Of a DNA stretch of 64,000 nt, positions 3,001-19,566 are shown in pieces. The first letter of the stretch is position 1; each line of letters starts with the position of its first letter. A program made the translations under genes and the position numbers. The stretch is from contig JAUSES010000029.1 in the NCBI GenBank assembly GCA_030649835.1, positions 4,130 through 68,129 of the forward strand, read 5' to 3'. Below the pieces are notes generated by a model. That model did no database searches, was not told where the DNA came from, and saw only the letters and a list, made by a program, of their open reading frames with translations. The stretch comes from a bacterium. GTDB taxonomy: Bacteria > Patescibacteriota > Minisyncoccia > Phycocordibacterales > UBA1550.

Positions 3001-4148
3001 GCAGAATTGCTAAATCCTGTTGTATTTGAACGAAGTGATTCATTCCCATTTGCGGTGTTTTGATAACCAGTGGTATTAGCGTATAGTGCCTTAAATCCAT
3101 TTGCTGTGTTTCTATATCCAGTTGTGTTGGAGAAAAGAGATTGATACCCCATTGAAGTAGATGACGCGCCTGTCGTATTAGAAAAAAGCGATTGATAGCC
3201 ATTTGTAGTATTTTCAGAGCCCGTAGTATTAGAGTAAAGGGACTGGTACCCCACAGCAGTTTGGTTACTGACAGTGGTATTTGAGTAGAGGGACTGATAG
3301 CCAAAAGCAGTATTGTTGGAGCCGGTGGTATTTGAAGCAAGAGATTGAGAGCCATTTGCAGTATTGTTAGAGCCGGTGTTGGTTAAAGCAGAGAGAGTGC
3401 CATACCCAATTGCGGTATTATTAGAGCCCGTAGTGGCAAAAACAAGGGCACCAGAACCGTTCGCGGTATTGTAGGATCCCGTAGTATTTAGAGAAAGGGA
3501 TTGGTCGCCATGTGCGGTGTTATCTGTTCCTGTAGTATTAAGGGTTAAGGCACCACGACCAGTTGCAGTGTTGGAAAATCCTGTAGTATTGGAACGAAGA
3601 GCCTGAACTCCAACCGCGGTATTATTATCCGACGATGTCGCCACATTAAGCGCCTGATACCCGATCGCAGTATTCTGTATGCCATCAAAAAGGAGCGCCG
3701 CTCCTGCGCCATTTCCCACGAGCGTTGAGAAGCTGGTGGATGATGCATATAAAATAGTATTTCCTGCCTGCTTGTAGCCGGAGTATTGGTCAGTGTTGAT
3801 GAAGCCTGAAACGTCGAGTTTGTAGCTAGGAATAGTCGTTCCAATCCCCACGTTGTTTGTAAAATAATCGTACACAAGTCCACTCGTTTCTGTGGCGAAC
3901 CCACCTGCAAAAGTAGAGGTTGCAGTGCTGCTGGTTGCTGTAAAATATCCAGCCGAAGCTGAGGCTCCGAGATTTGAGACCGAAACAGTACAGTCAGTTG
4001 TTGTTGGAGAACATGTTGGATCAAGTGTTTCACCCGGTGCGTATAATGGTGCCGCGAATACTGTACTCGAAAAAGCAAACAAGGAAAAAACAAACACGTA
4101 GTATGTTTTTTTAAATAATGCAAATCTGCGCGGGTAGATTATTCGCAT
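1..4148 (-). CDS. giant secreted repeat protein (partial; C-terminus lies beyond the window start). It has a signal peptide, then three near-identical modules, each with a tail-fibre-like 'NNVGIGTTxPxYKLDVSG...' segment followed by long runs of 15-16-aa Hep_Hag/YadA-head-like repeats (consensus SNTTGxxNTAxGxxAL)
   Basis: Manual translation of the minus strand from ATG at 4148..4146, with a TGA stop just upstream and GAGGT 7 nt upstream. Codon phase was checked at positions 4100-3981, 3368 and 2240 and stays open to position 1. Every ORF-track ORF in this span is in a different frame, i.e. a shadow ORF. The ORF is absent from the track, apparently because it is edge-truncated. The N-terminus reads MRIIYPRRFALFKKTYYVFVFSLFAFSSTVFAAPLYAPG... 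(signal peptide). Confidence 0.75.
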   Translation of the reverse strand, partial: MRIIYPRRFALFKKTYYVFVFSLFAFSSTVFAAPLYAPGETLDPTCSPTTTDCTVSVSNLGASASAGYFTATSSTATSTFAGGFATETSGLVYDYFTNNVGIGTTIPSYKLDVSGFINTDQYSGYKQAGNTILYASSTSFSTLVGNGAGAALLFDGIQNTAIGYQALNVATSSDNNTAVGVQALRSNTTGFSNTATGRGALTLNTTGTDNTAHGDQSLSLNTTGSYNTANGSGALVFATTGSNNTAIGYGTLSALTNTGSNNTANGSQSLASNTTGSNNTAFGYQSLYSNTTVSNQTAVGYQSLYSNTTGSENTTNGYQSLFSNTTGASSTSMGYQSLFSNTTGYRNTANGFKALYANTTGYQNTANGNESLRSNTTGFSNSATGYQAGYSNTTGFFNLGNGYQSLYSNTSGDGNVAIGYQTLYTATSTDYNTAVGYIALTANTSGIQNSAIGAQALSGNTTGSYNTANGYFALRANTTGLFNTANGNRALTLNTTGASNTSSGYQSLANNTTGSLNTANGVVSLAANTTGENNTAEGSYSLNQNTTGSSNTANGYGALQFNTTGASSTAIGYQAGVGDGTTLDQQSVIDTFMTFFGFQASRDASVASTTALTNGTAIGKNARVGASNTIVLGGTGADAVNVGIGTTSPMSMLAVAGTITSNIINATSTTATSTFAGGFAVETNGFVYDYSSNNVGIGTTIPGYKLDVSGFINTDQYSGYKQAGNTILYASSTSFSTLVGNGAGAALLFDGIQNTAIGYQALNVATSSDSNTALGYRSLFANTTAGNNTGVGMNALLTNTTGGNNTAIGRSAMSSNTTGGSNTASGVDSLFSNISGGSNTVNGFRTFYSNTTGQGGTALGYQAGYGDGTTQDQRSVIDTFATFLGYQASRSETVASTSVLTNITAIGKNARVGASNTIVLGGTGADAVNVGIGTTTPYAKLSVVGEVVGAFFTATTTSNNTFPSLVSTNATTTSATSTNSFSTTASSTNLFTSNFSLGTLTGPLQAISGLVSASSTLSQFYGGTGFSTYTAGDLLYSGSANVLNKLSIGTGGYVLGVSNGLPAWVATTTLATISGTLTVAKGGTGQTSFGQGWLHSDGTTLTSSTSPTVNYLTATSTTATSTFAGGFAVETNGFVYDYSSNNVGIGTTIPGYKLDVSGFINTDQYSGYKQAGNTILYASSTNFSTLAGIGAGAALLSDGSQNTAIGYQALNVATSSDFNTAIGWRALFSNTTGFFNVAIGYSALNLNTIGYSNTAIGESALFSNSSGIQNTAIGDSALASNTTGTSSVAIGYQSGNANTVGYQNTFIGYSSGYTDGTVTTPNNLVNAAAIGYLAQATASNTLILGGTGAFAVNVGIGTTTPEQRLHVSQTATGVVARFTNGT

Positions 4149-4196
4149 AATACCTCATTCATATTATACACTATCTTCGGTGCGTATGACGAGCAA

Positions 4197-4249
4197 AAAT
4201 CAATAGATGGGGAGGTTCGCTACGCGCACCTCCCCATCTATTGATTTTC
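4197..4249. terminator. perfect 21-bp-stem hairpin with a CGCTACGCG apex, between the ends of two convergent/minus-strand genes
   Basis: aaaatcaatagatggggaggt-tcgctacgcgc-acctccccatctattgatttt. Confidence 0.5.
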
Positions 4250-4266
4250 GCTTTCTGACACACAAA

Positions 4267-6183
4267 TTAAACCTCAAACTTCTTCTGAATAATTCCTCTC
4301 GGTGCCTCAACTTCTTGCGAGAAATCTGCCTGTGCGTAGGAGCCATCCTGTCCTTTTCTCATCACGCCCACATTGTATGTTCCCTTTGCCACCAACATAT
4401 AGTATCTGCCGAGTGCATCGGTAATACTTTTTCGCACCTCAACCTTACTATCCGGATGGGAAACTTTCACGACGCCAAAAGCAAGAGGGAGCCCCGTCTC
4501 TTTTTCAATGACTACCCCATGCGGTCTGTCCCCAGTTCCTACCTTGCGGAGAACCCAAACAAAAACATACAGTCCCCAAATTGCAAAATTATACGGCTGA
4601 GGATCAATAAAAATAATAAAAAGAGTTACAATAAAACCAACTATAAATAGGATGCGCGATAGTCGCTCAATAAAAATAATATTACGCGAATAAAACCCCA
4701 TAAGGTGCTGTGTGCGTTTTGCATATTCGTTCCAGTCAAACCCTTCGGGGTCCATGGGAATATCACGCGCAAGAAATGCCCCACCTTCAGTTAGTATAAG
4801 AGGTTCCCCAAAATATAGATTTCCGTAAAACTCATCCGCTGTTTTCCCCGCAAGCACCGTTGACGGAAATTTATAATTTGTTTTATTTACTACAATGCGA
4901 TAGATCCCCGGGGGCGCAAAAAACCCATACCGTCCATCAAGGTCAGTAAATGCCGTCGCAACTTCTTTCCCCTCAAGGGTTTGCAGTTCAACATACGCAG
5001 GATCAAGTGGTTGTTTTGTCACACTGTCATACACAGCGCCCCATGGGCGATGACGACGTTTGAGCCCAAACACGGTGAGCAGGAGTCCCCACAGCTGTGC
5101 GGGAAGTAGGAGCAACTCAGAAAATGAAAATGCCTGCGCAAACAGAAGCGAAAAGAGAGACGTGGTTCCTCCCATCACTACACCAGCAGTAGTTACCGTA
5201 TTACTTGTAATCGCCCCCTGAGGTGTATCTAAAACTATTTTTGCCCCTTGCCGAACATTATCAACTGACTTACGCGCCTGTACCGTACTTCTGTTTACTG
5301 ATTCTTTTGCATTTGAAAATGCGGTGCCTATGCTCGTGATAATATTACCGACTTGTTCTGAAACAGTGTTAACCACTGACGAAAAAGTACCTCCTCCTCC
5401 GCCACCCCCACCAGATGACCCACTATTATTTTGCCCTCCATTTTGCCCTCCATCGGGAGAAGGAATTGGGATTGGAGTAGGGGTTGGTTCTAATGTAGGA
5501 GTTGGAGTTGGGGTGGGCGCAGGTTCTGGTACGGGTGTAGGTTCGGGTATCGGCGTTGGAGGAGGTGTTGGTTCTGGGGTCGGTTCTGACGTTGGTGTAG
5601 GTGGCACAACCACTGGTCCCCCTCCCACAGGATCCGTTTCATTATTGTCACCTGTCCCTGTACACCCAGGATCTGTGGGATAATCTACTTTCCCATCACT
5701 GTCATCATCAATAACATTGCTACACTGTGGAGGTAACCAGTTTGTTTGTACTTTGTGTGAGAGCGTGCCACACGTGCTATCTGTCGCGCAGCTAAAAACA
5801 AGCCAGCCTTTTGTTTCACTCCACGCATAGCCATTAAAGTTTCCCGATGCATCGATGGTCACCCCGCCATTTGTGGGCTTAAAATTTATCCAGCCTGTGT
5901 TTTGCCCCCATGCATACCCGGTAAGGACGCCACTTCCGTTGTTTGTCACACCGCCATTTGTGGGTGCCAAATTGATCCAGCCAAAATTTGTACTCCATGC
6001 GTAACCAGTTATGTTTCCGCTATTCACCACCACGCCACCATTCGTACTACCAAAATTCACCAAAGAATTGTCATCCAAAAACCGCGCATACTTGTTTGTT
6101 GTATCAATGGTCCCCGCAGATGTAAGAAGAGGGACGGCGAAAAAGAAAAAAAGAGTGAGGGCGAGACGCTTCATTGACAACAT
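4267..6183 (-). CDS. modular membrane/surface protein: signal peptide, four Trp-rich beta-repeats (GYAWSxxxGWINF), a Pro/Thr-rich linker, a Gly-rich tract, TM helices and two carboxypeptidase-regulatory-like (CarboxypepD_reg-type) domains
   Basis: ORF-track translation shows a PTPEPTP linker, a GGGGGGGG run, hydrophobic helices, and motifs 'DLDGRYGFFAPPGIYRIVV' and 'DALGRYYMLVAKGTYNVGV'. The track starts at a TTG; the true start is probably MKRLAL at ~6174. Confidence 0.6.
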   Translation of the reverse strand: MLSMKRLALTLFFFFAVPLLTSAGTIDTTNKYARFLDDNSLVNFGSTNGGVVVNSGNITGYAWSTNFGWINLAPTNGGVTNNGSGVLTGYAWGQNTGWINFKPTNGGVTIDASGNFNGYAWSETKGWLVFSCATDSTCGTLSHKVQTNWLPPQCSNVIDDDSDGKVDYPTDPGCTGTGDNNETDPVGGGPVVVPPTPTSEPTPEPTPPPTPIPEPTPVPEPAPTPTPTPTLEPTPTPIPIPSPDGGQNGGQNNSGSSGGGGGGGGTFSSVVNTVSEQVGNIITSIGTAFSNAKESVNRSTVQARKSVDNVRQGAKIVLDTPQGAITSNTVTTAGVVMGGTTSLFSLLFAQAFSFSELLLLPAQLWGLLLTVFGLKRRHRPWGAVYDSVTKQPLDPAYVELQTLEGKEVATAFTDLDGRYGFFAPPGIYRIVVNKTNYKFPSTVLAGKTADEFYGNLYFGEPLILTEGGAFLARDIPMDPEGFDWNEYAKRTQHLMGFYSRNIIFIERLSRILFIVGFIVTLFIIFIDPQPYNFAIWGLYVFVWVLRKVGTGDRPHGVVIEKETGLPLAFGVVKVSHPDSKVEVRKSITDALGRYYMLVAKGTYNVGVMRKGQDGSYAQADFSQEVEAPRGIIQKKFEV

Positions 6184-9854: not shown

Positions 9855-10907
9855 TTGCAGAACTGTCTTCAAAAGTATATATTGGGGCTCATGATAAATA
9901 TCAAAACCACCCTAAAAAACATTTCTGAAAGCGAAGTAGAGATTCTTTGTGAGGTTCCCTCTGACACATTTGAGAAAGAACGCCCTATTGCACTCAAGAA
10001 AATTGGTGAGGAAGTAACACTTCCGGGTTTTCGCAAGGGGCACGTGCCGGAGTCAATGATTGTTCAAAAATTTGGTGAGGCACTCATCCTCGAAGAAATG
10101 GCAAACCTCGCCATGGACCGCGCCTACAGCGAGATTTTAAATCGCCACAAGGTGAATGCGATTGCAATGCCAAATGTACAGATAAAAAAGCTCGCTATGG
10201 GTAACCCTTTTGAGTTCACACTCACCTTTCAAGTGATGCCTGAAATAAAACTTCCTGATTATAAAAAAATTGCAAAGGAAGTGATGACTATTACAGAAAA
10301 AACTGATGTTACCGACGAGGAAGTGGCGCAAGCAGAAAAGGAGCTCAGCAAACAATTTGCAACCAAAGATCCCGAGGGAAAAGAAGTTCTCCCAGAAATA
10401 ACCGACGAACTTGCACAGAAGTTTGGACCATTTAAAGATGTGGCAGAGTTCCGCACAAAAATCCGTGAGTCAATCGCCCATGAAAAAACAACTCGCGCTC
10501 GCGAAAAGAAACGTATGCAGATTATGGAAAAGGTTGCAGACGGTATCACCACAAAGCTTCCACAAGTATTAATAGACGGTGAGCTTGAGAGAATGATCGG
10601 TCAGTTCAAACACGATGTGGAACAAATGGGGATGAAGTTTGAAGACTACCTCGCGACCACAAAGAAAACTATTGAGGAAATGCGCAAAGAATGGACTTCC
10701 GACGCAGAGAAGCGCGCGAAAGTGCAAATAGCCCTCAACGAAATTTCTCTTTTAGAAAAAATTGAGCCACTTGCAGACGACATCGAGCGCGAATCCAAAT
10801 TTTTCCTCGAAAAATACCCCGACACCGATCCCGCACGTGTCCGCCTCCACCTCTCCATGATGCTCACCAATGAAAAAGTCTTCCAGTTTTTGGAAGCTCA
10901 AAAATAA
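9855..10907 (+). CDS. tig: trigger factor (short form; the PPIase domain appears reduced or absent)
   Basis: N-terminal ribosome-binding domain with the GFRKGHVP signature. The start is possibly MINIKTT at 9891. Confidence 0.75.
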   Translation: MQNCLQKYILGLMINIKTTLKNISESEVEILCEVPSDTFEKERPIALKKIGEEVTLPGFRKGHVPESMIVQKFGEALILEEMANLAMDRAYSEILNRHKVNAIAMPNVQIKKLAMGNPFEFTLTFQVMPEIKLPDYKKIAKEVMTITEKTDVTDEEVAQAEKELSKQFATKDPEGKEVLPEITDELAQKFGPFKDVAEFRTKIRESIAHEKTTRAREKKRMQIMEKVADGITTKLPQVLIDGELERMIGQFKHDVEQMGMKFEDYLATTKKTIEEMRKEWTSDAEKRAKVQIALNEISLLEKIEPLADDIERESKFFLEKYPDTDPARVRLHLSMMLTNEKVFQFLEAQK

Positions 10908-10917
10908 TCTCAGAAAA

Positions 10918-10942
10918 GACCGGCATAATGCCGGTTTTTTCT
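10918..10942 (+). terminator. rho-independent terminator after tig
   Basis: gaccggcataatgccggtc followed by a T-tract. Confidence 0.55.
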
Positions 10943-11328
10943 TAGCTACAAATGATTTGATACTCCTCTTTAATAATCGCTTTCCACTCTGCTGTTTCGT
11001 TTTTGCTACTTAAATCAGTTTTTGTGTATACCAATAAAACTGAGACGGATTGTTTCTCCTTGTTTAACGCAACAATACATCTATTGCCCGAACTCTTTGC
11101 GGATTCTTTTGTTCCTGCTATCCTAAATTTCGTTTTTATAATTTGTACACCTTCTACATCACTAATAGTTTCGGCACGATCAGTCAGAAGTAGATTATCA
11201 ACACGCTCAAGCTCAGCAACAATCGCAAGTCGGGTAATGTCCCATTTCCCTTGGTACTTCTTTTGAAAACTTTTGATGAAATGCCGTTCGGCGAAATCTT
11301 CAATCATTACTGAAAAATTTCCTTGCAT
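10942..11328 (-). CDS. 128-aa protein encoded 12 nt downstream of the HTH-Panacea gene; candidate toxin partner (family not recognised)
   Basis: Operon position. The C-terminal beta-rich segment (NRCIVALNKEKQSVSVLLVYTKTD) is loosely RelE/YoeB-like. Confidence 0.35.
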   Translation of the reverse strand: MQGNFSVMIEDFAERHFIKSFQKKYQGKWDITRLAIVAELERVDNLLLTDRAETISDVEGVQIIKTKFRIAGTKESAKSSGNRCIVALNKEKQSVSVLLVYTKTDLSSKNETAEWKAIIKEEYQIICS

Positions 11329-11340
11329 AATTTTGAACGA

Positions 11341-12042
11341 CTAATACACCACCTCAGGGTCTTCCTGTGTAATGAGTTCGTATGGGATAAGTTCATTGTC
11401 GCGACACAAAAAATATGGAAGTTGATTGTGGGTAAAGTTTACAATTTCATTCGTGTTTTTATCCTTCCACTTTGTTGCAATTTTTTTCATAAGCGACATC
11501 TCCTCTACAGAAAGTGTTCGTATCTTTTCATTTTTATTGCTATCTGATTCGCTCACGAGAAGCATGCCTTTGCCATCAGTATTTTTGCGGTCTATCACAA
11601 TTTTGCCAGACTCCTCAAGCTCGTCGAGTGCGCGAAAAAAGGTATCTGGTACGGGACCATATGAAATCTTCCGATACTGCATGCCACTCATACTTTCAAG
11701 ATGTTCATAGAACCACGCGAAATCTGCAAGATAAAGCAACTTCGCAAGTTTTGTTTTAGTTACTTTGCCGTCATCTTTTTGCGTTAGACTCATGCGTAGA
11801 AAAGAAAGGATCATGTGTTTGTACTTTTCAATGTCGGGGATGGTGCCAGAGAGTAGAGTATCCACTCCGATACTAAAAAAACTTGCGAGCTTCTTTACTT
11901 CATCCACATCAAGCGGTTGTTTCCCTGCCTCTATCGCTGTATATGTTGAGCGAGAAACACCTATCGCTGTGGCGACCTGTTCCTGCGAAAGCCCTCGCCC
12001 TACCCGAAGACTCTTTATGAATTGTGCATATTTATTAGTCAT
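11341..12042 (-). CDS. XRE-family HTH protein fused to a Panacea (DUF4065, SocA/PanA-like antitoxin) domain
   Basis: N-terminus LSQEQVATAIGVSRSTYTAIEAGKQ is an HTH_3 motif. KLAKLLYLADFAWF…YRKISYGPVPDTFF matches the Panacea signature KLxKLLYxAxxW…YGPV. The likely start is MTNKYAQ at 12042; the track ORF extends to a TTG at 12078. Confidence 0.6.
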   Translation of the reverse strand: MTNKYAQFIKSLRVGRGLSQEQVATAIGVSRSTYTAIEAGKQPLDVDEVKKLASFFSIGVDTLLSGTIPDIEKYKHMILSFLRMSLTQKDDGKVTKTKLAKLLYLADFAWFYEHLESMSGMQYRKISYGPVPDTFFRALDELEESGKIVIDRKNTDGKGMLLVSESDSNKNEKIRTLSVEEMSLMKKIATKWKDKNTNEIVNFTHNQLPYFLCRDNELIPYELITQEDPEVVY

Positions 12043-12173
12043 ACACAGATTATACACTGTTTTATGCACAGAAAGCAAGCAATTTTGGTCAAGAATTCAC
12101 ACAAAGGGTGGTATAATGAATGTGCTGGCGTAGTCGAGCCAGCACCTAAATTACTAGAAAATTCGTAGAATTT

Positions 12174-12377
12174 ATGAAGTATTACGTAAACAAAAACCAG
12201 CAAACAAACGGCGACCATGAAGTGCACACAGCAAACTGTTCGCGATTACCGAACCTCGAGAATCGGTTATACCTTGGAGACTTTCTTTATTGCTCACAAG
12301 CAGTAAATGAAGCAAAGAGGTATTATCGGCAATCTAATGGCTGTTATTACTGTTCAAACCCTTGCCATACACAGTAG
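12174..12377 (+). CDS. small Cys/His-rich conserved hypothetical protein (possible Zn-binding)
   Basis: 67 aa with C22, C40, C57, C60, C64 and H65. An extended -10 (TGgTATAAT, 12109..12117) and a 5'-UTR hairpin (12122..12145) lie upstream. Confidence 0.45.
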   Translation: MKYYVNKNQQTNGDHEVHTANCSRLPNLENRLYLGDFLYCSQAVNEAKRYYRQSNGCYYCSNPCHTQ

Positions 12378-12518
12378 ACCAAAGAGGTAAATTGAGCAAA
12401 ATGTGACGGACTATTGAGAGCCAACGGAGAAGGAGGAACGATTTTATGGCCAATCACCTGCGGTGCTAGAAAGGCACACCTCGCTCATAACAAAACCCAC
12501 GAAAGTGGATTTTGTTAT

Positions 12519-12779
12519 TTATATAATTAGAATTATTTGAATTAAAAAACTAAAAGCAATAAGTAGTAGCCCAAAATAACTAAGTTTTTTATATCTTTCG
12601 TACTTTCTTTTTTCAGTTTCGTCAGTTTGTTCTAAAAGAAGACAACTGTCCCCCTCAGGATTAACCCGAGGAGGTAGCCCGAAGAAAAACAATATCATTG
12701 TTCCAACCAACCCAAAAAATGCGCTCCACAATTCAAGATTCATTAAATAGCCAATGAGAATTTCTAAATAATTCTCCAT
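12519..12779 (-). CDS. small two-TM membrane protein, immediately downstream of the restriction-modification gene
   Basis: Two hydrophobic helices. Start lies 3 nt after the stop of the upstream gene. Confidence 0.4.
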   Translation of the reverse strand: MENYLEILIGYLMNLELWSAFFGLVGTMILFFFGLPPRVNPEGDSCLLLEQTDETEKRKYERYKKLSYFGLLLIAFSFLIQIILII

Positions 12780-12781
12780 AT

Positions 12782-15487
12782 CTATTTACTCGTGTACTTC
12801 TTATATAGCTCAAATAAAAATTCAATGCGGGATTCTTTGGTGGGGAATTTTTTGTTGTAGCAGGCGTCGACGGCGCGGTCGAGGTCGGTGTGGGCTTTGA
12901 CGAGCTCGGGTGGCATGGTGTTGGGATCGTATAGATCAGCAAGTGAGCTATGTGGAAATTGCGCACGAGCATCAAGCACACCTTGTGCGGACTCCTCTAC
13001 TTTTTTCTTTTGTTCATCTAAAATATTTTCTGGCCAGGGGAAGTTGTTATAAACAATGTTGATTGAATAATTGTAGTCACTTTTTAATCTTCCACACACT
13101 CTATTAACCCATGTCATGTGCATCAAGGAACTAAGTATTCCAAAAATATATAATAAATTATCTGAAACAACTGATGCTCCTTTGTTGTTGATAACGACAT
13201 TTTTGTGCATAAATCCAATGGGGATTACATCCCTGCTTTCAGAAGAAATGAGTGGGAAAAATAAAAAATTTTCCTCTGGTTGTCTCCTCTCTGCAAAAAT
13301 GGCAGGTGTACTTGCTAATTTTTGAGTTGCTTCACGCGAACTTTCTAAGCGGTGATTTTTAGTCTTCTCAATTCTTTCTAAAACCATCGGCATCATTCTT
13401 AATTTTGAAGGCTCAACACCAACAAGCCACAAGCAATATCGTTTTCTGCTGTTAATTAGTTCCTCAGATCCAATATACTCTCTAAAATACTCTGCACTTT
13501 GTGGTTCAGAATTAACGAACTCGAGGTACTCTTCTTTTGTAAAAATAAGATTACCTCCGTCATTCGGCATACTTCCAAAATTCATTTCTGGGACATTACA
13601 AATGGGCTTTCTGCGACTTTCCAAAAAAATATCATTTCCTTCTGAAAGATACGAGTTGATCTTTTTAACTTCTTTTTCCTTTGGCTCGCTTTTTATTGTC
13701 TCGTATTCATAGAGATATTTTTTAGAAGTCTCCACTGTCGCAAAACCCACAATGACACAATACACAGCTGCAACTCCAGGCGCATCATTATTCCATTTGA
13801 ATGTCTGATGTGCGAAGTGAATTACAATGCCATATTTTTCTTTTAATCTCTTCCACAAAATTCCCACTTGCTCACCTTGGCAGATTGAGTTAGTAGAAAC
13901 GAACGCGGTTTTGATATTGGTACCAACCATATATCGTGATGCCTTTTCATACCATGCAGTTACAAAATCCAAATTGCCTGCACCTTTTGCATTATCAAAA
14001 ATACTCAAGAACACCTCTTTTTGCCCTTTGCTCATTATTCGAGCGCCCACAAAAGGCGGATTACCGAGGATGTACGAGAGTTTGTGCTTGGGTACAACTT
14101 CTTCCCATTTTCTAGTAAGCGCGTTATCATTTACAATTGTCGCTGGTTCACGAAGCGGTAAGCGCAGGTATGGAATGCCAAATTTTGCCGAGAGCTCGTT
14201 GTTCATCTGATGATCTACAAGATACATTGCCGTGCGCGCAATCAGCGCTGGCGACTCCTCTATTTCTATTCCATAAAACTGATTAACATTGAGGAGCGAG
14301 AGGTCTTCGGTGCCAAACATTCTCATCTGTCCTGTTTTATTTTTTATATCAAGGATTTCGAGCTCAAGCCTGCGAAGTTCGCGATACGTAACCACAAGGA
14401 AGTTGCCGCAGCCGCACGCTGGGTCGAGGAATGTGAGCTTTGCAAGCTTTTGATGAAATGCATCAAGTTTTTTTGGATCATACTTCGCTTGATCAAATTC
14501 AACATACAACTCATCAAGAAAAAGTGGTTGAATGACTTTTAAAATATTTTTTTCAGAAGTATAGTGGGCTCCGAGCTGACGTCGACTATCTTCGTTCATT
14601 ACCCCTTGGAACAGGGAGCCGAAAATAGATGCTGATATTTCTGACCAACCAAAACTGCAACACTTCACGAGCTTTAGGCGCGCTCCTGCATCCAAAGATA
14701 CTGGAGCGATACGTTCCGCAAAAACTCCGCCGTTGATGTGTGGGAATGCGTTTAACTGCTCATCGAGATTTGTTTGTCGCTTTTCTCGTGGAGTGTTGAG
14801 GACTTCAAAAATTTGGAGCAAGTGAATGCCTAAATCACTACCGTCTATATTTGTGCGGTCTTCTATATAGGTGCGAAACTGCCCTTGCTGAAATATTCCA
14901 GTGTCCTCGGCAAAGAGGCAGAACAATATACGTGCGAGAAAAACATCAAGGTCATGCCCGCTGTATCCCGTCTTTGCAATCTCGTTGTGAAAATCCGCCA
15001 TCAATTTTGCCGCCTTGATGCTTGCCTCTTCTTCTTTTTCATAATGACGAACAGTATACCCAGAAATGAACCCAAAAAGTTCTATGTTTTTATGTAAATC
15101 TTTAAGCAAAAATTCTTCGTGCTTATTTTCTTCCAAGTCATATACTCGTATTTTTTCAAAATCGGAAACAACAATATAGCGTGGTAGCTCTGCGTTTTTT
15201 AATCCCGGGATATAGTCCTTTGCTTGAGCATATGCTTTGTCGAGGTCTTTGCCTCGCGACTTGTGTTCCGCAAGCATCACCCCTTTCCAGAGAACGTCGA
15301 TAAACCCCTGCGCGCCATCCTGCTTTTTAACATTATATTCAAATGCTGCGACCCTGCGACGAGGAACGCCAAAAACCTCAAAAAATCCGTCCCAAAAACT
15401 TTTTGCTTCTGCGTCTTCGTTGCATTCTCGCTCCCATTCGTGGGCAAAAACGAGGGCGCGGTTTCGTATTTCGTTGAGACTTATCAT
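12782..15487 (-). CDS. Type IIG/IIL single-polypeptide restriction-modification enzyme, MmeI family (N-terminal PD-ExK nuclease, N6-adenine methyltransferase, TRD)
   Basis: FIDVLWKGVMLAEHKSRGKDL matches the MmeI nuclease D-x9-E-x-K motif. LDPACGCGNFLV is motif I. GNPPFVG is motif IV (N6-A methyltransferase). The C-terminal LADLYDP…AH.DLD..V tail is MmeI-like. Length is ~900 aa. Start ATG at 15487 with GGAGG upstream. Confidence 0.75.
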   Translation of the reverse strand: MISLNEIRNRALVFAHEWERECNEDAEAKSFWDGFFEVFGVPRRRVAAFEYNVKKQDGAQGFIDVLWKGVMLAEHKSRGKDLDKAYAQAKDYIPGLKNAELPRYIVVSDFEKIRVYDLEENKHEEFLLKDLHKNIELFGFISGYTVRHYEKEEEASIKAAKLMADFHNEIAKTGYSGHDLDVFLARILFCLFAEDTGIFQQGQFRTYIEDRTNIDGSDLGIHLLQIFEVLNTPREKRQTNLDEQLNAFPHINGGVFAERIAPVSLDAGARLKLVKCCSFGWSEISASIFGSLFQGVMNEDSRRQLGAHYTSEKNILKVIQPLFLDELYVEFDQAKYDPKKLDAFHQKLAKLTFLDPACGCGNFLVVTYRELRRLELEILDIKNKTGQMRMFGTEDLSLLNVNQFYGIEIEESPALIARTAMYLVDHQMNNELSAKFGIPYLRLPLREPATIVNDNALTRKWEEVVPKHKLSYILGNPPFVGARIMSKGQKEVFLSIFDNAKGAGNLDFVTAWYEKASRYMVGTNIKTAFVSTNSICQGEQVGILWKRLKEKYGIVIHFAHQTFKWNNDAPGVAAVYCVIVGFATVETSKKYLYEYETIKSEPKEKEVKKINSYLSEGNDIFLESRRKPICNVPEMNFGSMPNDGGNLIFTKEEYLEFVNSEPQSAEYFREYIGSEELINSRKRYCLWLVGVEPSKLRMMPMVLERIEKTKNHRLESSREATQKLASTPAIFAERRQPEENFLFFPLISSESRDVIPIGFMHKNVVINNKGASVVSDNLLYIFGILSSLMHMTWVNRVCGRLKSDYNYSINIVYNNFPWPENILDEQKKKVEESAQGVLDARAQFPHSSLADLYDPNTMPPELVKAHTDLDRAVDACYNKKFPTKESRIEFLFELYKKYTSK

Positions 15488-15541
15488 GTGTTTTACGTCC
15501 TCCAAGTATACGCCCAATTGTTTTTAATACAAAACGTGCGA

Positions 15542-16255
15542 CTATTTCACAAGTGCCAAGGTGAGTGCGACGATTGCTGCTGTTTCGGCGCGGAGGATTT
15601 GGGGGCCGGTGGTAACAATGGGGATTTTGTGTGAGTGTAAAAACGCTATTTCCTCATCTGTGAAACCTCCTTCGGGGCCGATGAACAGCGAAACGGGTGA
15701 GACTGTGTGCTTCGTGAAATACTCTCGCGCGGATGTTTCTCCACGTGGGTCAAACACGATAAAGTTTTTGTGGGGGATATCTTCCGTTTTTATAATTTCT
15801 AAAATCTCTGGCACCGTTGTGCGCCCAGACTGTTCTGATGCTTCACGCACTATCTTTTGCGCGCGTTCATAGTTCACTCCCTTCTTTTCACTTCGGTCTG
15901 CTTGCACGGGCACAATGCGCGAGGCACCAAGCTCGGTTGCTTTTTCCAACACCATTTCAAAATTATCCTTTTTAATAAGTGCTAGATACAAAGTAACTTC
16001 ACGAAGTGATGAAGGAATGTGTTTCTTTTCCAAAACTTTAAGTGTTGCGAGACTTTTAGACAGTGAAACAAATTCACACAAGGCCTCATCCCCTTTCCCA
16101 TCAAAAAGAACAGCCTTGTCGCACGCCTCCATGCGAAGCACATTCCGCCATTGATTAAGGAGACCCTTGTCCACTAGATTAAACTCAGCGCCCTCAGGCG
16201 GAAGCTCTTTCTTCGGAAAATCCTTATCGTCCACAAAAAATCTATGTAGTTTCAT
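15542..16255 (-). CDS. rsmE: 16S rRNA (uracil1498-N3)-methyltransferase RsmE
   Basis: The RsmE C-terminal motif FIGPEGGFTDEE is present. Confidence 0.8.
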   Translation of the reverse strand: MKLHRFFVDDKDFPKKELPPEGAEFNLVDKGLLNQWRNVLRMEACDKAVLFDGKGDEALCEFVSLSKSLATLKVLEKKHIPSSLREVTLYLALIKKDNFEMVLEKATELGASRIVPVQADRSEKKGVNYERAQKIVREASEQSGRTTVPEILEIIKTEDIPHKNFIVFDPRGETSAREYFTKHTVSPVSLFIGPEGGFTDEEIAFLHSHKIPIVTTGPQILRAETAAIVALTLALVK

Positions 16256-16381
16256 CCCGTTAGAAGTAGGAAATTATTAAAAATTTCCGTAGTTAACTAA
16301 TAAATTGTCAGCCTAAATACATTTATCATAAATTCCCCCTAAACGCCACCCCTGAACCATATGACTTCTAACGGGATTCAT
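16253..16381. repeat. family-1 TIR element copy A (CATCCCGTTAGAAGT … ACTTCTAACGGGATTCAT), with an internal ggaaat…atttcc hairpin
   Basis: The left terminus CAT is the rsmE start codon. Copies also lie at 29577..29703, ~38914..39043 and 55077..55254. Confidence 0.7.
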
Positions 16382-16391
16382 GTTGTTAAAA

Positions 16392-16670
16392 TTATTCAAA
16401 CAAAGAGGCGTGTGTGCCAATGTTTACCAAAAGCAATACTAACACGTCTTTTTCTTTGCGATACAGAAGTAAAATATCATTTTGAACATGACATTCTCGT
16501 ATTCCAACGAATTCACCTTTCAACTCATGATCTTTATATTGAGCAGGGATTTTTTCGCTTTTCTTAAGCAACAAAACTACTTCATCAAGCTTTTTAATAT
16601 GGAAATCCTTGTGCTGCTCAACACGCTTAAGTGACTTTCTGTATTGATTCGATGAAATAACGTGGTACAT
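16392..16670 (-). CDS. type II toxin, YafQ/RelE family
   Basis: YKDHELKGEFVGIRECHVQNDILLLYR matches YafQ-like toxins. Confidence 0.7.
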   Translation of the reverse strand: MYHVISSNQYRKSLKRVEQHKDFHIKKLDEVVLLLKKSEKIPAQYKDHELKGEFVGIRECHVQNDILLLYRKEKDVLVLLLVNIGTHASLFE

Positions 16671-16672
16671 AT

Positions 16673-16960
16673 TTATTTACCAAGAATTTCACGGTGCATC
16701 TGTTCAACATCGTCATACGCTTTAATCTTTCCACTTTTATAATCCCTAAGGGTTTTTTCTGCAATACGTACCAACTCTCGTTTCTTTTCCTCAGGCCAAT
16801 AGTCGGCACTCATTACCGGAAAAGGAATGGACTTTGTATTTACTACTTGTGCAAGAAAAAGCTTCATTCCTGTCGACATATCCAAACCCATAGACTTAAA
16901 GATTTTACTCGCATCACTTTTCATCTTCTTGTCCACCCTAAATTGTAGTGTTGTGGTCAT
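16673..16960 (-). CDS. type II antitoxin, RelB/DinJ family
   Basis: TTLQFRVDKKMKSDASKIFKSMGLDMSTGMKLFLAQVV is a DinJ-like RHH. It lies 3 nt upstream of the toxin. Confidence 0.7.
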   Translation of the reverse strand: MTTTLQFRVDKKMKSDASKIFKSMGLDMSTGMKLFLAQVVNTKSIPFPVMSADYWPEEKKRELVRIAEKTLRDYKSGKIKAYDDVEQMHREILGK

Positions 16961-17094
16961 AAATACAGTATACACCCGCAATCTTCCTTGTCAATACATT
17001 GTCACTACATCAAAATAGTCTATCAGGTCAGCGCAGAAAACAAAAACTCGGCCTGCCGTGAAGCAGACCGAGGTATTGAAAATGAATGCAAAAA

Positions 17095-17601
17095 TTAAAT
17101 AGTGCGACGAAAAAAAACGAAATTTGTATCTGCGCTCCATTCACCGTCATAATGATAATTATTGGGAAGATTCTTCCTTAAATCACTCCTTTTGTAATAC
17201 TCTTGAATTCGTTTATATTCGTTCAAGACAACATTCACCTCCTCTATTAAAGCAACTTCGAATCCACCTTTATCTGAGAGACTGCTACATTGTAAGAACA
17301 TTTGTAGTCCGCGACGACTTTGCGGAAATAGCTCATAGCCAAGCTCTGAAATACGAGCATATGTGTTTCTAAGTTTTGCGCCATTTCCAAAGCCAAGATT
17401 ACGATTAGACGCTATGACTAACTCAGCCCCCGTCTCCTTGCTGTACGTCCTTTCATAATGTCCAACATCCTTAATGGAAGTGGCGGCCTGACTCAAAGCA
17501 GTCAACACCATATTTCTGAGGCATTCTTTTCTGTCTTTTGCCAGCCTATGATTAACACCAGGGGTAATTGTACTAAATGTTGAAAAACGTGAATTGTTCA
17601 T
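17095..17601 (-). CDS. hypothetical protein (168 aa, no recognisable domain)
   Basis: ORF only. Confidence 0.35.
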   Translation of the reverse strand: MNNSRFSTFSTITPGVNHRLAKDRKECLRNMVLTALSQAATSIKDVGHYERTYSKETGAELVIASNRNLGFGNGAKLRNTYARISELGYELFPQSRRGLQMFLQCSSLSDKGGFEVALIEEVNVVLNEYKRIQEYYKRSDLRKNLPNNYHYDGEWSADTNFVFFRRTI

Positions 17602-17740
17602 CGTGCTTCTCCCAAAGTTGATAAAACGGTTAAATTTTGCCCCTCAATCCTCAAAGGACTACTGAAACAAATATAGCAAGTATTTAGGCTTTTGTCAAGT
17701 CAAAATTTGCAACAATTTAGAATTGTGGTACGATACCCAC

Positions 17741-18337
17741 ATGTCCTACTTAATCCCAACTGTTATTGAAAAGTCGCCACAAGGCGAACGTGCGTATGAT
17801 ATTTACTCGCGCCTACTCAAGGAGCGCATCATTTTCCTTTCGGGCGCTATTGATGATGACACGGCAAACATCACCATCGCTCAGCTTCTTTTTCTTGAAT
17901 CTGAAGATCCAAAAAAAGATATTTCTTTATACATCAACTCCCCCGGTGGCTCCGTGACTGCAGGAATGGCGCTCTACGACACCATGCAACACGTGAAGCC
18001 AGATGTTTCTACTATTTGTGTTGGAATGGCAGCATCAATGGGTGCAGTGCTTCTCTCTGCGGGCGCAAAGGGTAAGCGTTTCATACTTCCCAATGCTGAG
18101 GTAATGATTCACCAGCCACTCGGGGGCACCGAGGGGCAGGCGTCCGACATCGCCATCACTGCAAAACATATTTTGAAAATAAAGGAGAATTTGAATAAAA
18201 TACTTTCAAAAAACACCGGCAAGCCTCTCGCACAAATAGAAAAAGACACCGACCGCGACTTTTTCATGTCCGCCGAAGAGGCTAAAAAGTATGGCATCAT
18301 CGACGAGATTTACAAACCCAAGAATCCGCGAAGCTAG
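17741..18337 (+). CDS. clpP: ATP-dependent Clp protease proteolytic subunit
   Basis: [11 protein letters not shown] (Ser), MIHQP (His) and the Asp of the catalytic triad are present. Confidence 0.9.
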
Positions 18338-18403
18338 CCTGCAAAAAAACATCCCCCGCCTTTTTGAAAAAGGCGGGGGATGTTTTTTTGCAGGCTAGCT
18401 TCG
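18331..18403. terminator. long perfect palindrome acting as a bidirectional terminator between clpP (+) and the AAA ATPase gene (-)
   Basis: gaagctagcctgcaaaaaaacatcccccgcc tttttgaaaaa ggcgggggatgtttttttgcaggctagcttc. Confidence 0.6.
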
Positions 18404-18414
18404 GCCAAATATCA

Positions 18415-19566
18415 CTAAAGCAGGTACTCCGGCCATGTATCTTTATTGATCACTTTAATACCTAAATTCTTAAATCTCTTTGCAAAAGCTTCTCTAGTTA
18501 ATGCATTAACCTTACTATCTTGCCATTTGCATTCAAAAGCATTGATATATTCACTTTTTCTTTCAACTATATCCACCTCACTCCCGCTATAGGTGCGCCA
18601 AAAACACATATCGACTGATTCATTTTCATGACGATATTTCTTGAGTCGTTCAATAAATACAAAATTTTCCCACAGTTGTCCGATGTCAGTGCGATTTTCA
18701 ATTTGTGCAAAGTTACTTACCACTGCATTACGAATACCGAGATCAACAAAATAGTATCGTTTATTTTTCCCAATTTCGTTTCTTTCGTTCTCAGTATTTA
18801 CGCTTGTTGAAGATGCAATAATGAATGATTTTTCTAAAATACCAATATATTTTTCTACTGTAGTTCGCGACAGCTGTACCCTTGTTGCAATCTCGTTAAT
18901 AGACACATCGTGCCCAATTTGGAGTGCCAACATTTTAAGCACACTTCTAATTCCTTCATGATTTCTTACCCCCTCAAATTCAAGAATGTCTTTATACAAA
19001 TACGCTTGCGTGATATCACGCATCATTATTTCTTTTAGCTTCGTATCATTTTCTTTGCGTATTGCTGGATAATTACCGTATACCAAAACATCGTGAACGA
19101 CCGAAAGCGTCATCACTCGCCCCAAAGTGAGGTCTATCTCGTGCATATCAAGAGGATAGAGATTGAGATAGCTTGCCCTTCCCGTGAGTGGCTCCGTGGT
19201 ATGGTGCGCGAGTCCGAAAGCAGAAGAACCTGTCACTATAAAAATGGCATCCTTATATGTATCCACCAAGAACTTTAAGGTAAGTCCCGGCTCTTCCAAA
19301 TACTGAGCCTCATCTATGATCACCAATTTTGCATTATTGAGGATCGGCGACACTCTCCCTATTGTTCGTGAGGAAAGCTCCTTTGCTGCAATCCGGTCAT
19401 CCCCCTGTAGCCAAACCTTTTTGCCAGAATAGGCGTCAAAATAATCTCGCAGTAGTGTTGTTTTTCCTGCCTGACGCGGTCCATAGACAACAAGGACTTT
19501 TCCTTCTCGCGCAAATTTTTCAATGTTCTTAGATTGTCTGCGAATGAATTTCATTACTGAAAGCAT
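18415..19566 (-). CDS. AAA+ ATPase with a C-terminal DUF4143-like domain (ATP-binding protein)
   Basis: Walker A VVYGPRQAGKTTLL, Walker B VIIDEAQ; the architecture is typical of AAA_14/DUF4143 proteins. Confidence 0.65.
   Translation of the reverse strand: MLSVMKFIRRQSKNIEKFAREGKVLVVYGPRQAGKTTLLRDYFDAYSGKKVWLQGDDRIAAKELSSRTIGRVSPILNNAKLVIIDEAQYLEEPGLTLKFLVDTYKDAIFIVTGSSAFGLAHHTTEPLTGRASYLNLYPLDMHEIDLTLGRVMTLSVVHDVLVYGNYPAIRKENDTKLKEIMMRDITQAYLYKDILEFEGVRNHEGIRSVLKMLALQIGHDVSINEIATRVQLSRTTVEKYIGILEKSFIIASSTSVNTENERNEIGKNKRYYFVDLGIRNAVVSNFAQIENRTDIGQLWENFVFIERLKKYRHENESVDMCFWRTYSGSEVDIVERKSEYINAFECKWQDSKVNALTREAFAKRFKNLGIKVINKDTWPEYLL

Follow-up and report, generated by a model that had tools for sequence, protein, structure and literature searches.

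A single-polypeptide MmeI-family restriction-modification gene with a cassette-like recognition domain and a candidate portable membrane-protein gene at its 3' end

The MmeI-family gene and its product

The locus described here occupies positions 12,174 to 15,487 of a 64,000-nucleotide stretch of bacterial DNA assigned to the Patescibacteriota (GenBank assembly GCA_030649835.1, contig JAUSES010000029.1, positions 4,130 to 68,129); we refer to the whole stretch as the window, and all coordinates are given in it. On the minus strand lies a gene for a 901-amino-acid protein (12782-15487) that matches the MmeI family of Type IIL/IIG restriction-modification (R-M) enzymes in Pfam, in PADLOC and in the Protein Data Bank (PDB; entry 5HR4). 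It is followed by a gene for an 86-amino-acid protein with two transmembrane helices, here called tm86 (12519-12779, minus strand), and, converging on both, by a gene for a 67-amino-acid Cys/His-rich protein, cys67 (12174-12377, plus strand). The MmeI-like open reading frame (ORF) opens with an ATG at 15487, has GGAGG about 11 nt upstream and closes with a TAG stop at 12782-12784; a TTG at 15517 is an alternative start that would lengthen the product to 911 amino acids.

Five Pfam domains follow one another along the protein in the order MmeI_N, MmeI_hel, MmeI_Mtase, MmeI_TRD and MmeI_C (PF20464, PF20465, PF20473, PF20466 and PF20467), with E-values from 1.8e-23 to 5e-86 and all well over the cut-offs, giving an architecture of N-terminal nuclease, helical spacer, gamma-class N6-adenine methyltransferase, target recognition domain (TRD) and C-terminal domain. 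The PADLOC model REase_MTase_IIG matches the full length at 1179 bits, and every other model scores 314 bits or less. The sole solved structure matching the protein is that of MmeI itself, from Methylophilus methylotrophus, a 919-amino-acid enzyme with the same order of five domains; residues 3-904 are aligned at 51% identity (E 5e-299, 997 bits). The family assignment rests on these three lines of evidence, and a score of 997 bits against MmeI excludes a chance ORF.

The catalytic residues that we checked are all kept. The PD-(D/E)XK nuclease motif, D64-X9-E74-X-K76 (DVLWKGVMLAEHK, 15260-15298, minus strand), aligns its three acting residues to D70, E80 and K82 of MmeI in the 5HR4 alignment, and the local context is nearly identical in the two enzymes (GFIDVLWKGVMLAEHKSRGKDLDKAY in the window, GFVDLFWPGILLIEMKSRGKDLDKAY in MmeI). 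Residue mapping and translation also place methyltransferase motif I, DPACGCG, at 14405-14425 and motif IV, NPPF, at 14051-14062 (both minus strand); MmeI has the same two motifs (DPACGCGNF and NPPF). Among the genes between 9.3 and 21.3 kb, all of which were identified, there is no separate DNA methyltransferase and no HsdS-like protein, rsmE encoding an rRNA methyltransferase. The initial annotation, made from the sequence alone, had described a complete single-chain Type IIG/IIL enzyme with a nuclease motif, methyltransferase motifs I and IV, and a TRD with an MmeI-like C-terminus; translation, the order of the Pfam domains and the full-length homology confirm each of these elements. It had also named a broken nuclease D/E/K and a lack of homology to MmeI as grounds for abandoning the assignment, and on checking we found the three residues intact and the homology unmistakable. 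We consider it highly probable, from sequence comparison, that 12782-15487 encodes an intact MmeI-family single-polypeptide R-M enzyme, a member of the known Type IIL/IIG kind.

Two other identities were considered for this protein. Methyltransferase-only derivatives of Type IIG enzymes are known, and the gene sits 54 nt past the housekeeping gene rsmE with no terminator detected in the gap, as might be expected of an orphan or epigenetic enzyme whose nuclease domain is dead. The full-length MmeI_N domain (E 7e-43, 50% identical to that of MmeI) and the retention of D, E and K of D-X9-E-X-K in a nearly identical local context make such a loss of nuclease function improbable. Far less probable still is that the protein is the methyltransferase part of a multi-gene system, which is suggested by weaker PADLOC matches to mad2 of MADS (147 bits), DrmMI of DISARM (105 bits) and PglX of BREX (about 15 bits), and by sub-threshold NCBIfam matches to PglX and MAD2. 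These 15 to 147 bits stand against 1179 bits over the full length for REase_MTase_IIG, the protein has all of the N-terminal, TRD and C-terminal domains specific to MmeI, and within about 6 kb on each side there is no PglZ or BrxC, no DrmA-C, no other mad gene and no other BREX, DISARM or MADS partner, all neighbours being accounted for. Membership in any of these three systems was rejected.

By analogy with MmeI, the gene would encode a functional, chromosomal Type IIL R-M enzyme of an uncultured bacterium of the Patescibacteria/candidate phyla radiation (CPR) type. Its TRD would bind an asymmetric 6-bp site, the adenine at position 5 would be flipped out and N6-methylated on one strand only, thereby protecting the host, and the N-terminal PD-(D/E)XK domain would cut unmodified DNA about 20/18 nt downstream, all within one polypeptide.

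Predicted recognition site

The residues that should set specificity were read against the residue-to-base rules given by a structural study (PMC4833311) and an engineering study (PMC2731914) of MmeI. Among 12 compared base-contacting residues of the TRD, 11 differ from those of MmeI (Y642F, K645M, A723R, F737A, Y738E, E751L, T752I, A774K, E806K, R808D and R810N), N773 being the only unchanged one; another residue in common is L805, packed against the thymine that lies opposite the target adenine. Because the contacts differ, a different site is predicted. At position 1, R (MmeI A723) and E (Y738) would specify C, and at position 2, F (Y642) with M (K645), as in SdeAI and CstMI, would specify A. 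The L and N at position 3 (E751 and N773) resemble the V+N pair of the sole Y-recognising enzyme and thus suggest Y, while at position 4 a K at A774, without Arg at R810, suggests C. Position 5 would be the target adenine, and at position 6 the K-D pair (E806 and R808), described as "exclusively G:C", would specify G. The Lys at A774 and the K-D pair are shared with the C4/G6 enzymes and with the engineered MmeI(4C6G). The site predicted in this way is CAYCAG-like, unlike the TCCRAC of MmeI, and we would give it an even chance of being correct, positions 1 and 3 being the weakest.

The MmeI-family enzymes PlaDI and PspPRI, known from REBASE, recognise CATCAG and CCYCAG. A specificity of the CAYCAG type may be new or may match an existing one. 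SdeAI, CstMI and NlaCI are characterised members of the family (PMC4833311).

Several points weigh against this account of the enzyme. The activity, the cut distance and the recognition sequence are all taken over from the analogy with MmeI and its rules. The rule used at position 3 is extrapolated from one single enzyme, and position 1 resisted re-engineering even in MmeI (PMC4833311), so that prediction from contact residues is imperfect. Finally, the window contains 57 CAYCAG sites where 47.7 +/- 6.8 would be expected, so that these sites are not depleted. A lack of depletion is expected where the host is protected by methylation, and the count neither supports nor contradicts the predicted site. 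The enzyme in itself is ordinary, one more member of its family with, possibly, a new CAYCAG-type specificity.

Exchange of the recognition domain and limits of the MmeI unit

The TRD (residues 606-812; 13052-13672, minus strand) stands apart in composition, with a GC content of 0.349 against 0.43-0.46 in the rest of the MmeI gene; the tm86 gene is lower still, at 0.314. A metagenomic relative, here L004 (loci fetched for comparison carry L numbers), was compared with it. Nucleotide identity between the window and L004 is about 81% over codons 1-605, falls to 47-61% over TRD codons 606-810 and rises to 79-91% in the C-terminal domain; it is 70-79% in the tm86 gene and 84% over the terminator and about 85 nt beyond, and homology stops near 12420. 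At the protein level, identity before, within and after the TRD is 92%, 47% and 92%. With 92% identity outside the recognition domain and 47% within it, the TRD has been exchanged as a cassette on a nearly identical scaffold. The L004 enzyme has MmeI's own E-S-R-Y-R at the contacts for positions 4 and 6, and the two scaffolds would therefore carry different specificities. Such a natural exchange is relevant to the engineering of restriction enzymes and methyltransferases of chosen specificity.

The limits of the unit emerge from three comparisons. Besides the mosaic shared with L004, homology to L033 (86% nucleotide identity) starts exactly at the MmeI start codon, with unrelated housekeeping genes upstream. 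In L048 the block that contains the terminator lies 1.4 kb past MmeI, after a different cargo made up of a 258-amino-acid gene, a leftover copy of about 60 nt of the MmeI 3' end and a 184-amino-acid gene. Together these comparisons define a unit that would consist of the MmeI ORF, a slot for variable cargo immediately past the stop codon, and the terminator with a conserved block; in this genome the slot would hold the 86-amino-acid two-helix membrane protein. Across the MmeI loci that we fetched, the ORFs downstream of MmeI are highly variable. Both the TRD exchange and the cargo slot fit the known behaviour of the MmeI family.

The terminator hairpin that closes the MmeI-tm86 unit was found by folding at 12487-12518, between the convergent genes and thus in a bidirectional position, and its pairing is supported by three compensatory changes when the window, L004 and L048 are compared. 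Just past it, at the distal end of the unit, lies a non-coding block of about 105 nt (12382-12486) that is common to three MmeI loci with different cargo, being about 80-84% identical in L004 (2776-2864) and L048 (8205-8310). The block has a Shine-Dalgarno-like GGAGAAGGAGG on the plus strand, followed by a frame ('YGARKAHL..KTH') that is kept in all three loci with no conserved start codon. It has no match in Rfam and no copies in viral contigs, and convincing covariation was not found in it outside the hairpin. A long outer stem predicted for the window block alone was discarded, as it is not conserved in L004.

Other occupants of the same position were also seen. In L048 (6765-7590) the 258-amino-acid gene is apparently inserted in the 3' end of the MmeI homologue, so that the C-terminal tail is altered and the duplicate of about 60 nt lies downstream. 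L017 and L056 have another small conserved ORF ('...HxDGSxEPRxxxxVGGVxFGPGVRF...') overlapping the stop codon of MmeI and, after it, a gene for a protein of about 100 amino acids with one transmembrane helix; this small ORF looks like another recurrent cargo of the slot.

A family of small membrane proteins linked to defence genes

Between the MmeI TAG stop and the tm86 gene there is a spacer of only 2 nt, the first base of tm86 being the third after the stop. AlphaFold2 predicts a helical hairpin (helices 2-33 and 54-85, pLDDT 85), in agreement with the initial annotation, which had proposed a mini-protein with two transmembrane helices at this position. Given the 2-nt spacer, tm86 is likely to be translationally coupled to MmeI.

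No match to tm86 was found in Pfam, NCBIfam, PADLOC or PHROGs; a profile search of the PDB returned only glycophorin-like transmembrane-helix noise, and Foldseek returned only generic helical hairpins. A narrow FFFG[LF]PP pattern retrieved no member from IMG/VR, GenBank phages yielded none, and the plasmids yielded a single one, from Legionella. A full-text literature search on small membrane genes embedded in R-M loci produced nothing relevant. With a word-indexed search we obtained only two homologues, one directly past the L004 MmeI with a 4-nt ATGA overlap, the other standing alone with its own promoter-like sequence. An exhaustive profile search, in contrast, gave 434 cluster representatives at E<=1e-3, of which 75 at E<=1e-10. 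Most members are 75-95 amino acids long, with conserved Gly, Pro and Gln positions, and some form part of a larger, uncharacterised membrane or coiled-coil protein, whose other part has no Pfam match.

Is tm86 then a conserved partner of MmeI? That idea was rejected, since tblastn (E<=1e-3) gave no tm86 homologue in the 54 MmeI loci retrieved from genomes and their downstream ORFs are variable; altogether tm86 directly follows MmeI in 2 of 56 MmeI loci. The company that the family keeps elsewhere is more informative. We examined a set of 43 metagenomic loci and three annotated contigs, forming 37 clusters at 90% identity, and in at least 17 of the 37 a gene identified as R-M or defence lies no more than two genes from the tm86-family gene; the remaining clusters are mostly on short contigs or have adjoining genes of no identified family. 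Members lie between Type I hsdM and hsdS (L068, L079-81, L108 and L070/72, the last with an Old nuclease), in L108 with 4-nt overlaps on both sides, and one precedes HsdS and a HerA-like gene (L077). Others come after Type III Mod-Res (L078, L086) or after a methyltransferase-containing protein of about 990 amino acids (L082, L089/90, L097-99), which is probably a Type IIG enzyme, although its MTS/Eco57I and MTase_II/mad2 matches are weak. Further members are found near Shedu (L093), PDC-S54 (L061), DUF3800 (L066) and DUF4238 (L100), and one in a deaminase/Schlafen region of a Legionella conjugative plasmid (L104). In R-M loci the family is found at the hsdM-hsdS junction (Type I) or at the 3' end of the enzyme gene (Types IIL, IIG and III). 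Most of its members are within 50 nt of an upstream defence gene on the same strand.

In L063, two genes from a tm86-family gene, we noticed an unusual 463-amino-acid ORF (3058-4449, minus strand) that joins the DNA-binding domain of LexA to an S24 peptidase and an N6_N4 DNA methyltransferase.

Copies of tm86 that are at least 90% identical follow unrelated genes: PDC-S54 in L061 and the Old nuclease of a Type I locus in L070/L072, and likewise two different Type III res genes in L078 and L086. The small gene therefore does not travel with one fixed neighbour, which argues that the family is a portable add-on rather than a dedicated subunit.

The tight linkage could also mean that tm86 is a functional partner of the R-M enzyme before it, either as a membrane tether where foreign DNA enters or as a latent toxin that the R-M protein silences and that is released on attack, as with PrrC and EcoprrI. 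The gene prrC sits between hsdM and hsdS of EcoprrI, an inserted gene linked to Type I restriction, and tm86-family genes are found at this junction too (L079-81, L108, L072), where start and stop codons overlap. The 2-nt spacer in the window, the 4-nt overlap in L004 and the two overlaps in L108 speak for such a partnership, as do the short distances to upstream defence genes in most of the family and the retention of the MmeI-tm86 pair in two loci despite their different TRDs. Unlike PrrC, however, tm86 is a two-helix membrane protein of about 80 amino acids with no nuclease or ATPase domain, and its family occurs also with Type IIG/IIL, Type III and non-R-M defence genes. It is unlikely that one small protein would bind PDC-S54, the Old nuclease, two Type III Res proteins, Shedu, DUF3800 and DUF4238, all of which the family follows; at least 52 of the 54 MmeI loci from genomes do without a recognisable tm86, and one homologue is solitary with promoter-like sequence of its own. 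For these reasons we regard a partnership with the enzyme as unlikely.

The likeliest role, although we hold it tentatively, is that tm86 would act on its own at the membrane, as an accessory of the exclusion or abortive-infection type and not as a subunit of MmeI. More generally, we propose, as an idea somewhat short of even chances, that tm86 belongs to an undescribed and widespread family of two-helix membrane proteins of about 80 amino acids which serve as a portable add-on to R-M and other defence genes, apparently co-translated with them, and which could provide a second, membrane-level layer of defence, either keeping DNA from entering or acting by abortive infection, or could stabilise the cassette. 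Three observations speak against this proposal. The MmeI loci from genomes gave no tm86 homologue, some members of the family adjoin housekeeping genes (L062, L074), and the association with defence is one of linkage, expressed as counts of loci.

What most deserves follow-up in this locus is the recurrence of tm86-family genes beside R-M or defence genes. If tm86 is indeed a defence accessory co-translated with four R-M types, bacterial immunity would have a further recurring component, new and so far missed by annotation and by defence-finding tools, and the family would offer a simple test case for how R-M systems gain second functions.

A Cys/His-rich protein of mobile elements

The third gene of the locus, cys67, lies outside the region common to the window and L004. 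Its product matches phrog_4298, a phage protein family of unknown function, over the full length (E 5.6e-24), and has 86 homologues of 54-81% identity in Proteobacteria, Firmicutes and CPR. C22, C57 and C60 are invariant and H15, H18 and H65 nearly so, and the predicted fold (pLDDT 96.7) weakly resembles the zinc domain of N-Ada. We conclude that cys67 is probably a small zinc-binding protein, and the modelled fold suggests that it may be a small zinc-dependent DNA-binding protein of many mobile elements.

Homologues occur as lone genes, often oppositely oriented, in the early or lysogeny regions of Streptococcus Javan prophages; Vibrio inoviruses also carry them, and further copies adjoin HigBA or lie next to IS110 and a Type I system in a conjugative element. 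Linkage to MmeI has weak support from a single other locus, L005, where a homologue of 45% identity likewise converges on the MmeI gene. The cys67 gene is an independent accessory gene of mobile elements, outside the conserved MmeI unit.

The initial annotation had given cys67 its own extended -10 promoter and a hairpin in the 5' untranslated region (UTR). Both sequences are present at 12109-12145 (plus strand): an extended -10, TGGTATAAT, at 12109-12117, and an inverted repeat with an 8-bp stem, GTGCTGGC-N8-GCCAGCAC, at 12122-12145, with functions that are read from sequence. The repeat falls inside the promoter region that cys67 shares with the divergent Xre-HTH/Panacea antitoxin gene. It may act as an operator and not as a hairpin of the 5' UTR; either reading would account for it equally well.

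That the two small ORFs are spurious, or decaying and functionless, might be suspected from the lack of a recognisable Shine-Dalgarno sequence in front of cys67, which one gene caller skipped, and from the very low GC content of tm86. The conservation of both proteins largely refutes this: cys67 has its full-length phrog_4298 match, homologues across phyla, invariant cysteines and a confidently predicted fold, and tm86 has its 434 homologous cluster representatives with conserved Gly, Pro and Gln. We hold the chance that they are spurious to be negligible. Of the two small genes that had been reported as co-located with MmeI, both are thus real and have conserved homologues; their standing as dedicated accessories of the enzyme was not borne out.

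Genomic neighbourhood and the clpP region

The genes around the locus run in the order trigger factor, Panacea antitoxin, a 121/128-amino-acid ORF, cys67, tm86, MmeI, rsmE, YafQ, RelB, a 168-amino-acid orphan, clpP, DUF4143/AAA_14 and RNase Y. The antitoxin combines Xre-HTH and Panacea domains (11341-12042, minus strand; Pfam HTH_3 and SocA_Panacea), and the gene calls place a putative toxin of 121 or 128 amino acids downstream of it (10942-11307/11328, minus strand). This ORF has no match to a known toxin family in Pfam, PADLOC or NCBIfam, and a weak one to phrog_5869. The antitoxin gene starts with ATG at 12042 and has TGTATAAT within 12043-12060 (minus strand), only 5 nt upstream of the start, suggesting that its mRNA is leaderless or nearly so.

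On the other side of MmeI, the 16S rRNA methyltransferase gene rsmE (15542-16255; Methyltrans_RNA and PUA_4) is followed by the toxin gene yafQ (16392-16670; PF15738, E 4e-27), with the RelB/DinJ antitoxin (16673-16924; PF04221, E 6e-12) directly upstream at a gap of 2 nt, the arrangement of a type II toxin-antitoxin pair. Between RelB and clpP lies the 168-amino-acid ORF (17095-17601), without a match in Pfam, NCBIfam, PADLOC or PHROGs and without a homologue in the fetched loci beyond the source contig, and past clpP an AAA_14 + DUF4143 ATPase (18415-19566; E 1e-121) that is a PADLOC candidate, PDC-S01; rsmE, the toxin-antitoxin pair, the 168-amino-acid ORF and the ATPase gene are on the minus strand. 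The rest of the window is ordinary chromosome, with NusA, a two-component system, UvrD and five tRNAs, and the nearest relatives of its proteins are in Paceibacterota and Patescibacteria. The earlier description of a defence-rich stretch interleaved with rsmE and clpP, and containing an orphan gene of 168 amino acids, is upheld by these matches, the HTH-Panacea, YafQ, RelB, DUF4143/AAA_14, RsmE and ClpP assignments all being confirmed by Pfam, and the reading of the region as a defence island holds.

Two other CPR genomes have an MmeI homologue in the neighbourhood of tig (trigger factor), clpP and rny (RNase Y). In L023 the order is rny, MmeI with two genes, and clpP-tig, with clpP and tig adjacent; in L005 it is rny, MmeI, the cys67 homologue, an S24 repressor, Bro-N, Fic and clpP. 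MmeI is therefore located between clpP and rny in both, and between tig and clpP in the window (9855-19566), where the tig-clpP gap of 6.8 kb holds MmeI and the toxin-antitoxin genes, and the DUF4143 ATPase lies between clpP and rny. Both genomes are only distant relatives of that of the window (tig 42% and clpP 77% identical). Compared with the window, the arrangements in L023 and L005 support a variable defence hotspot around clpP: the backbone of tig, clpP and rny is conserved, and the gaps between these genes hold differing defence cargo from one CPR genome to another.

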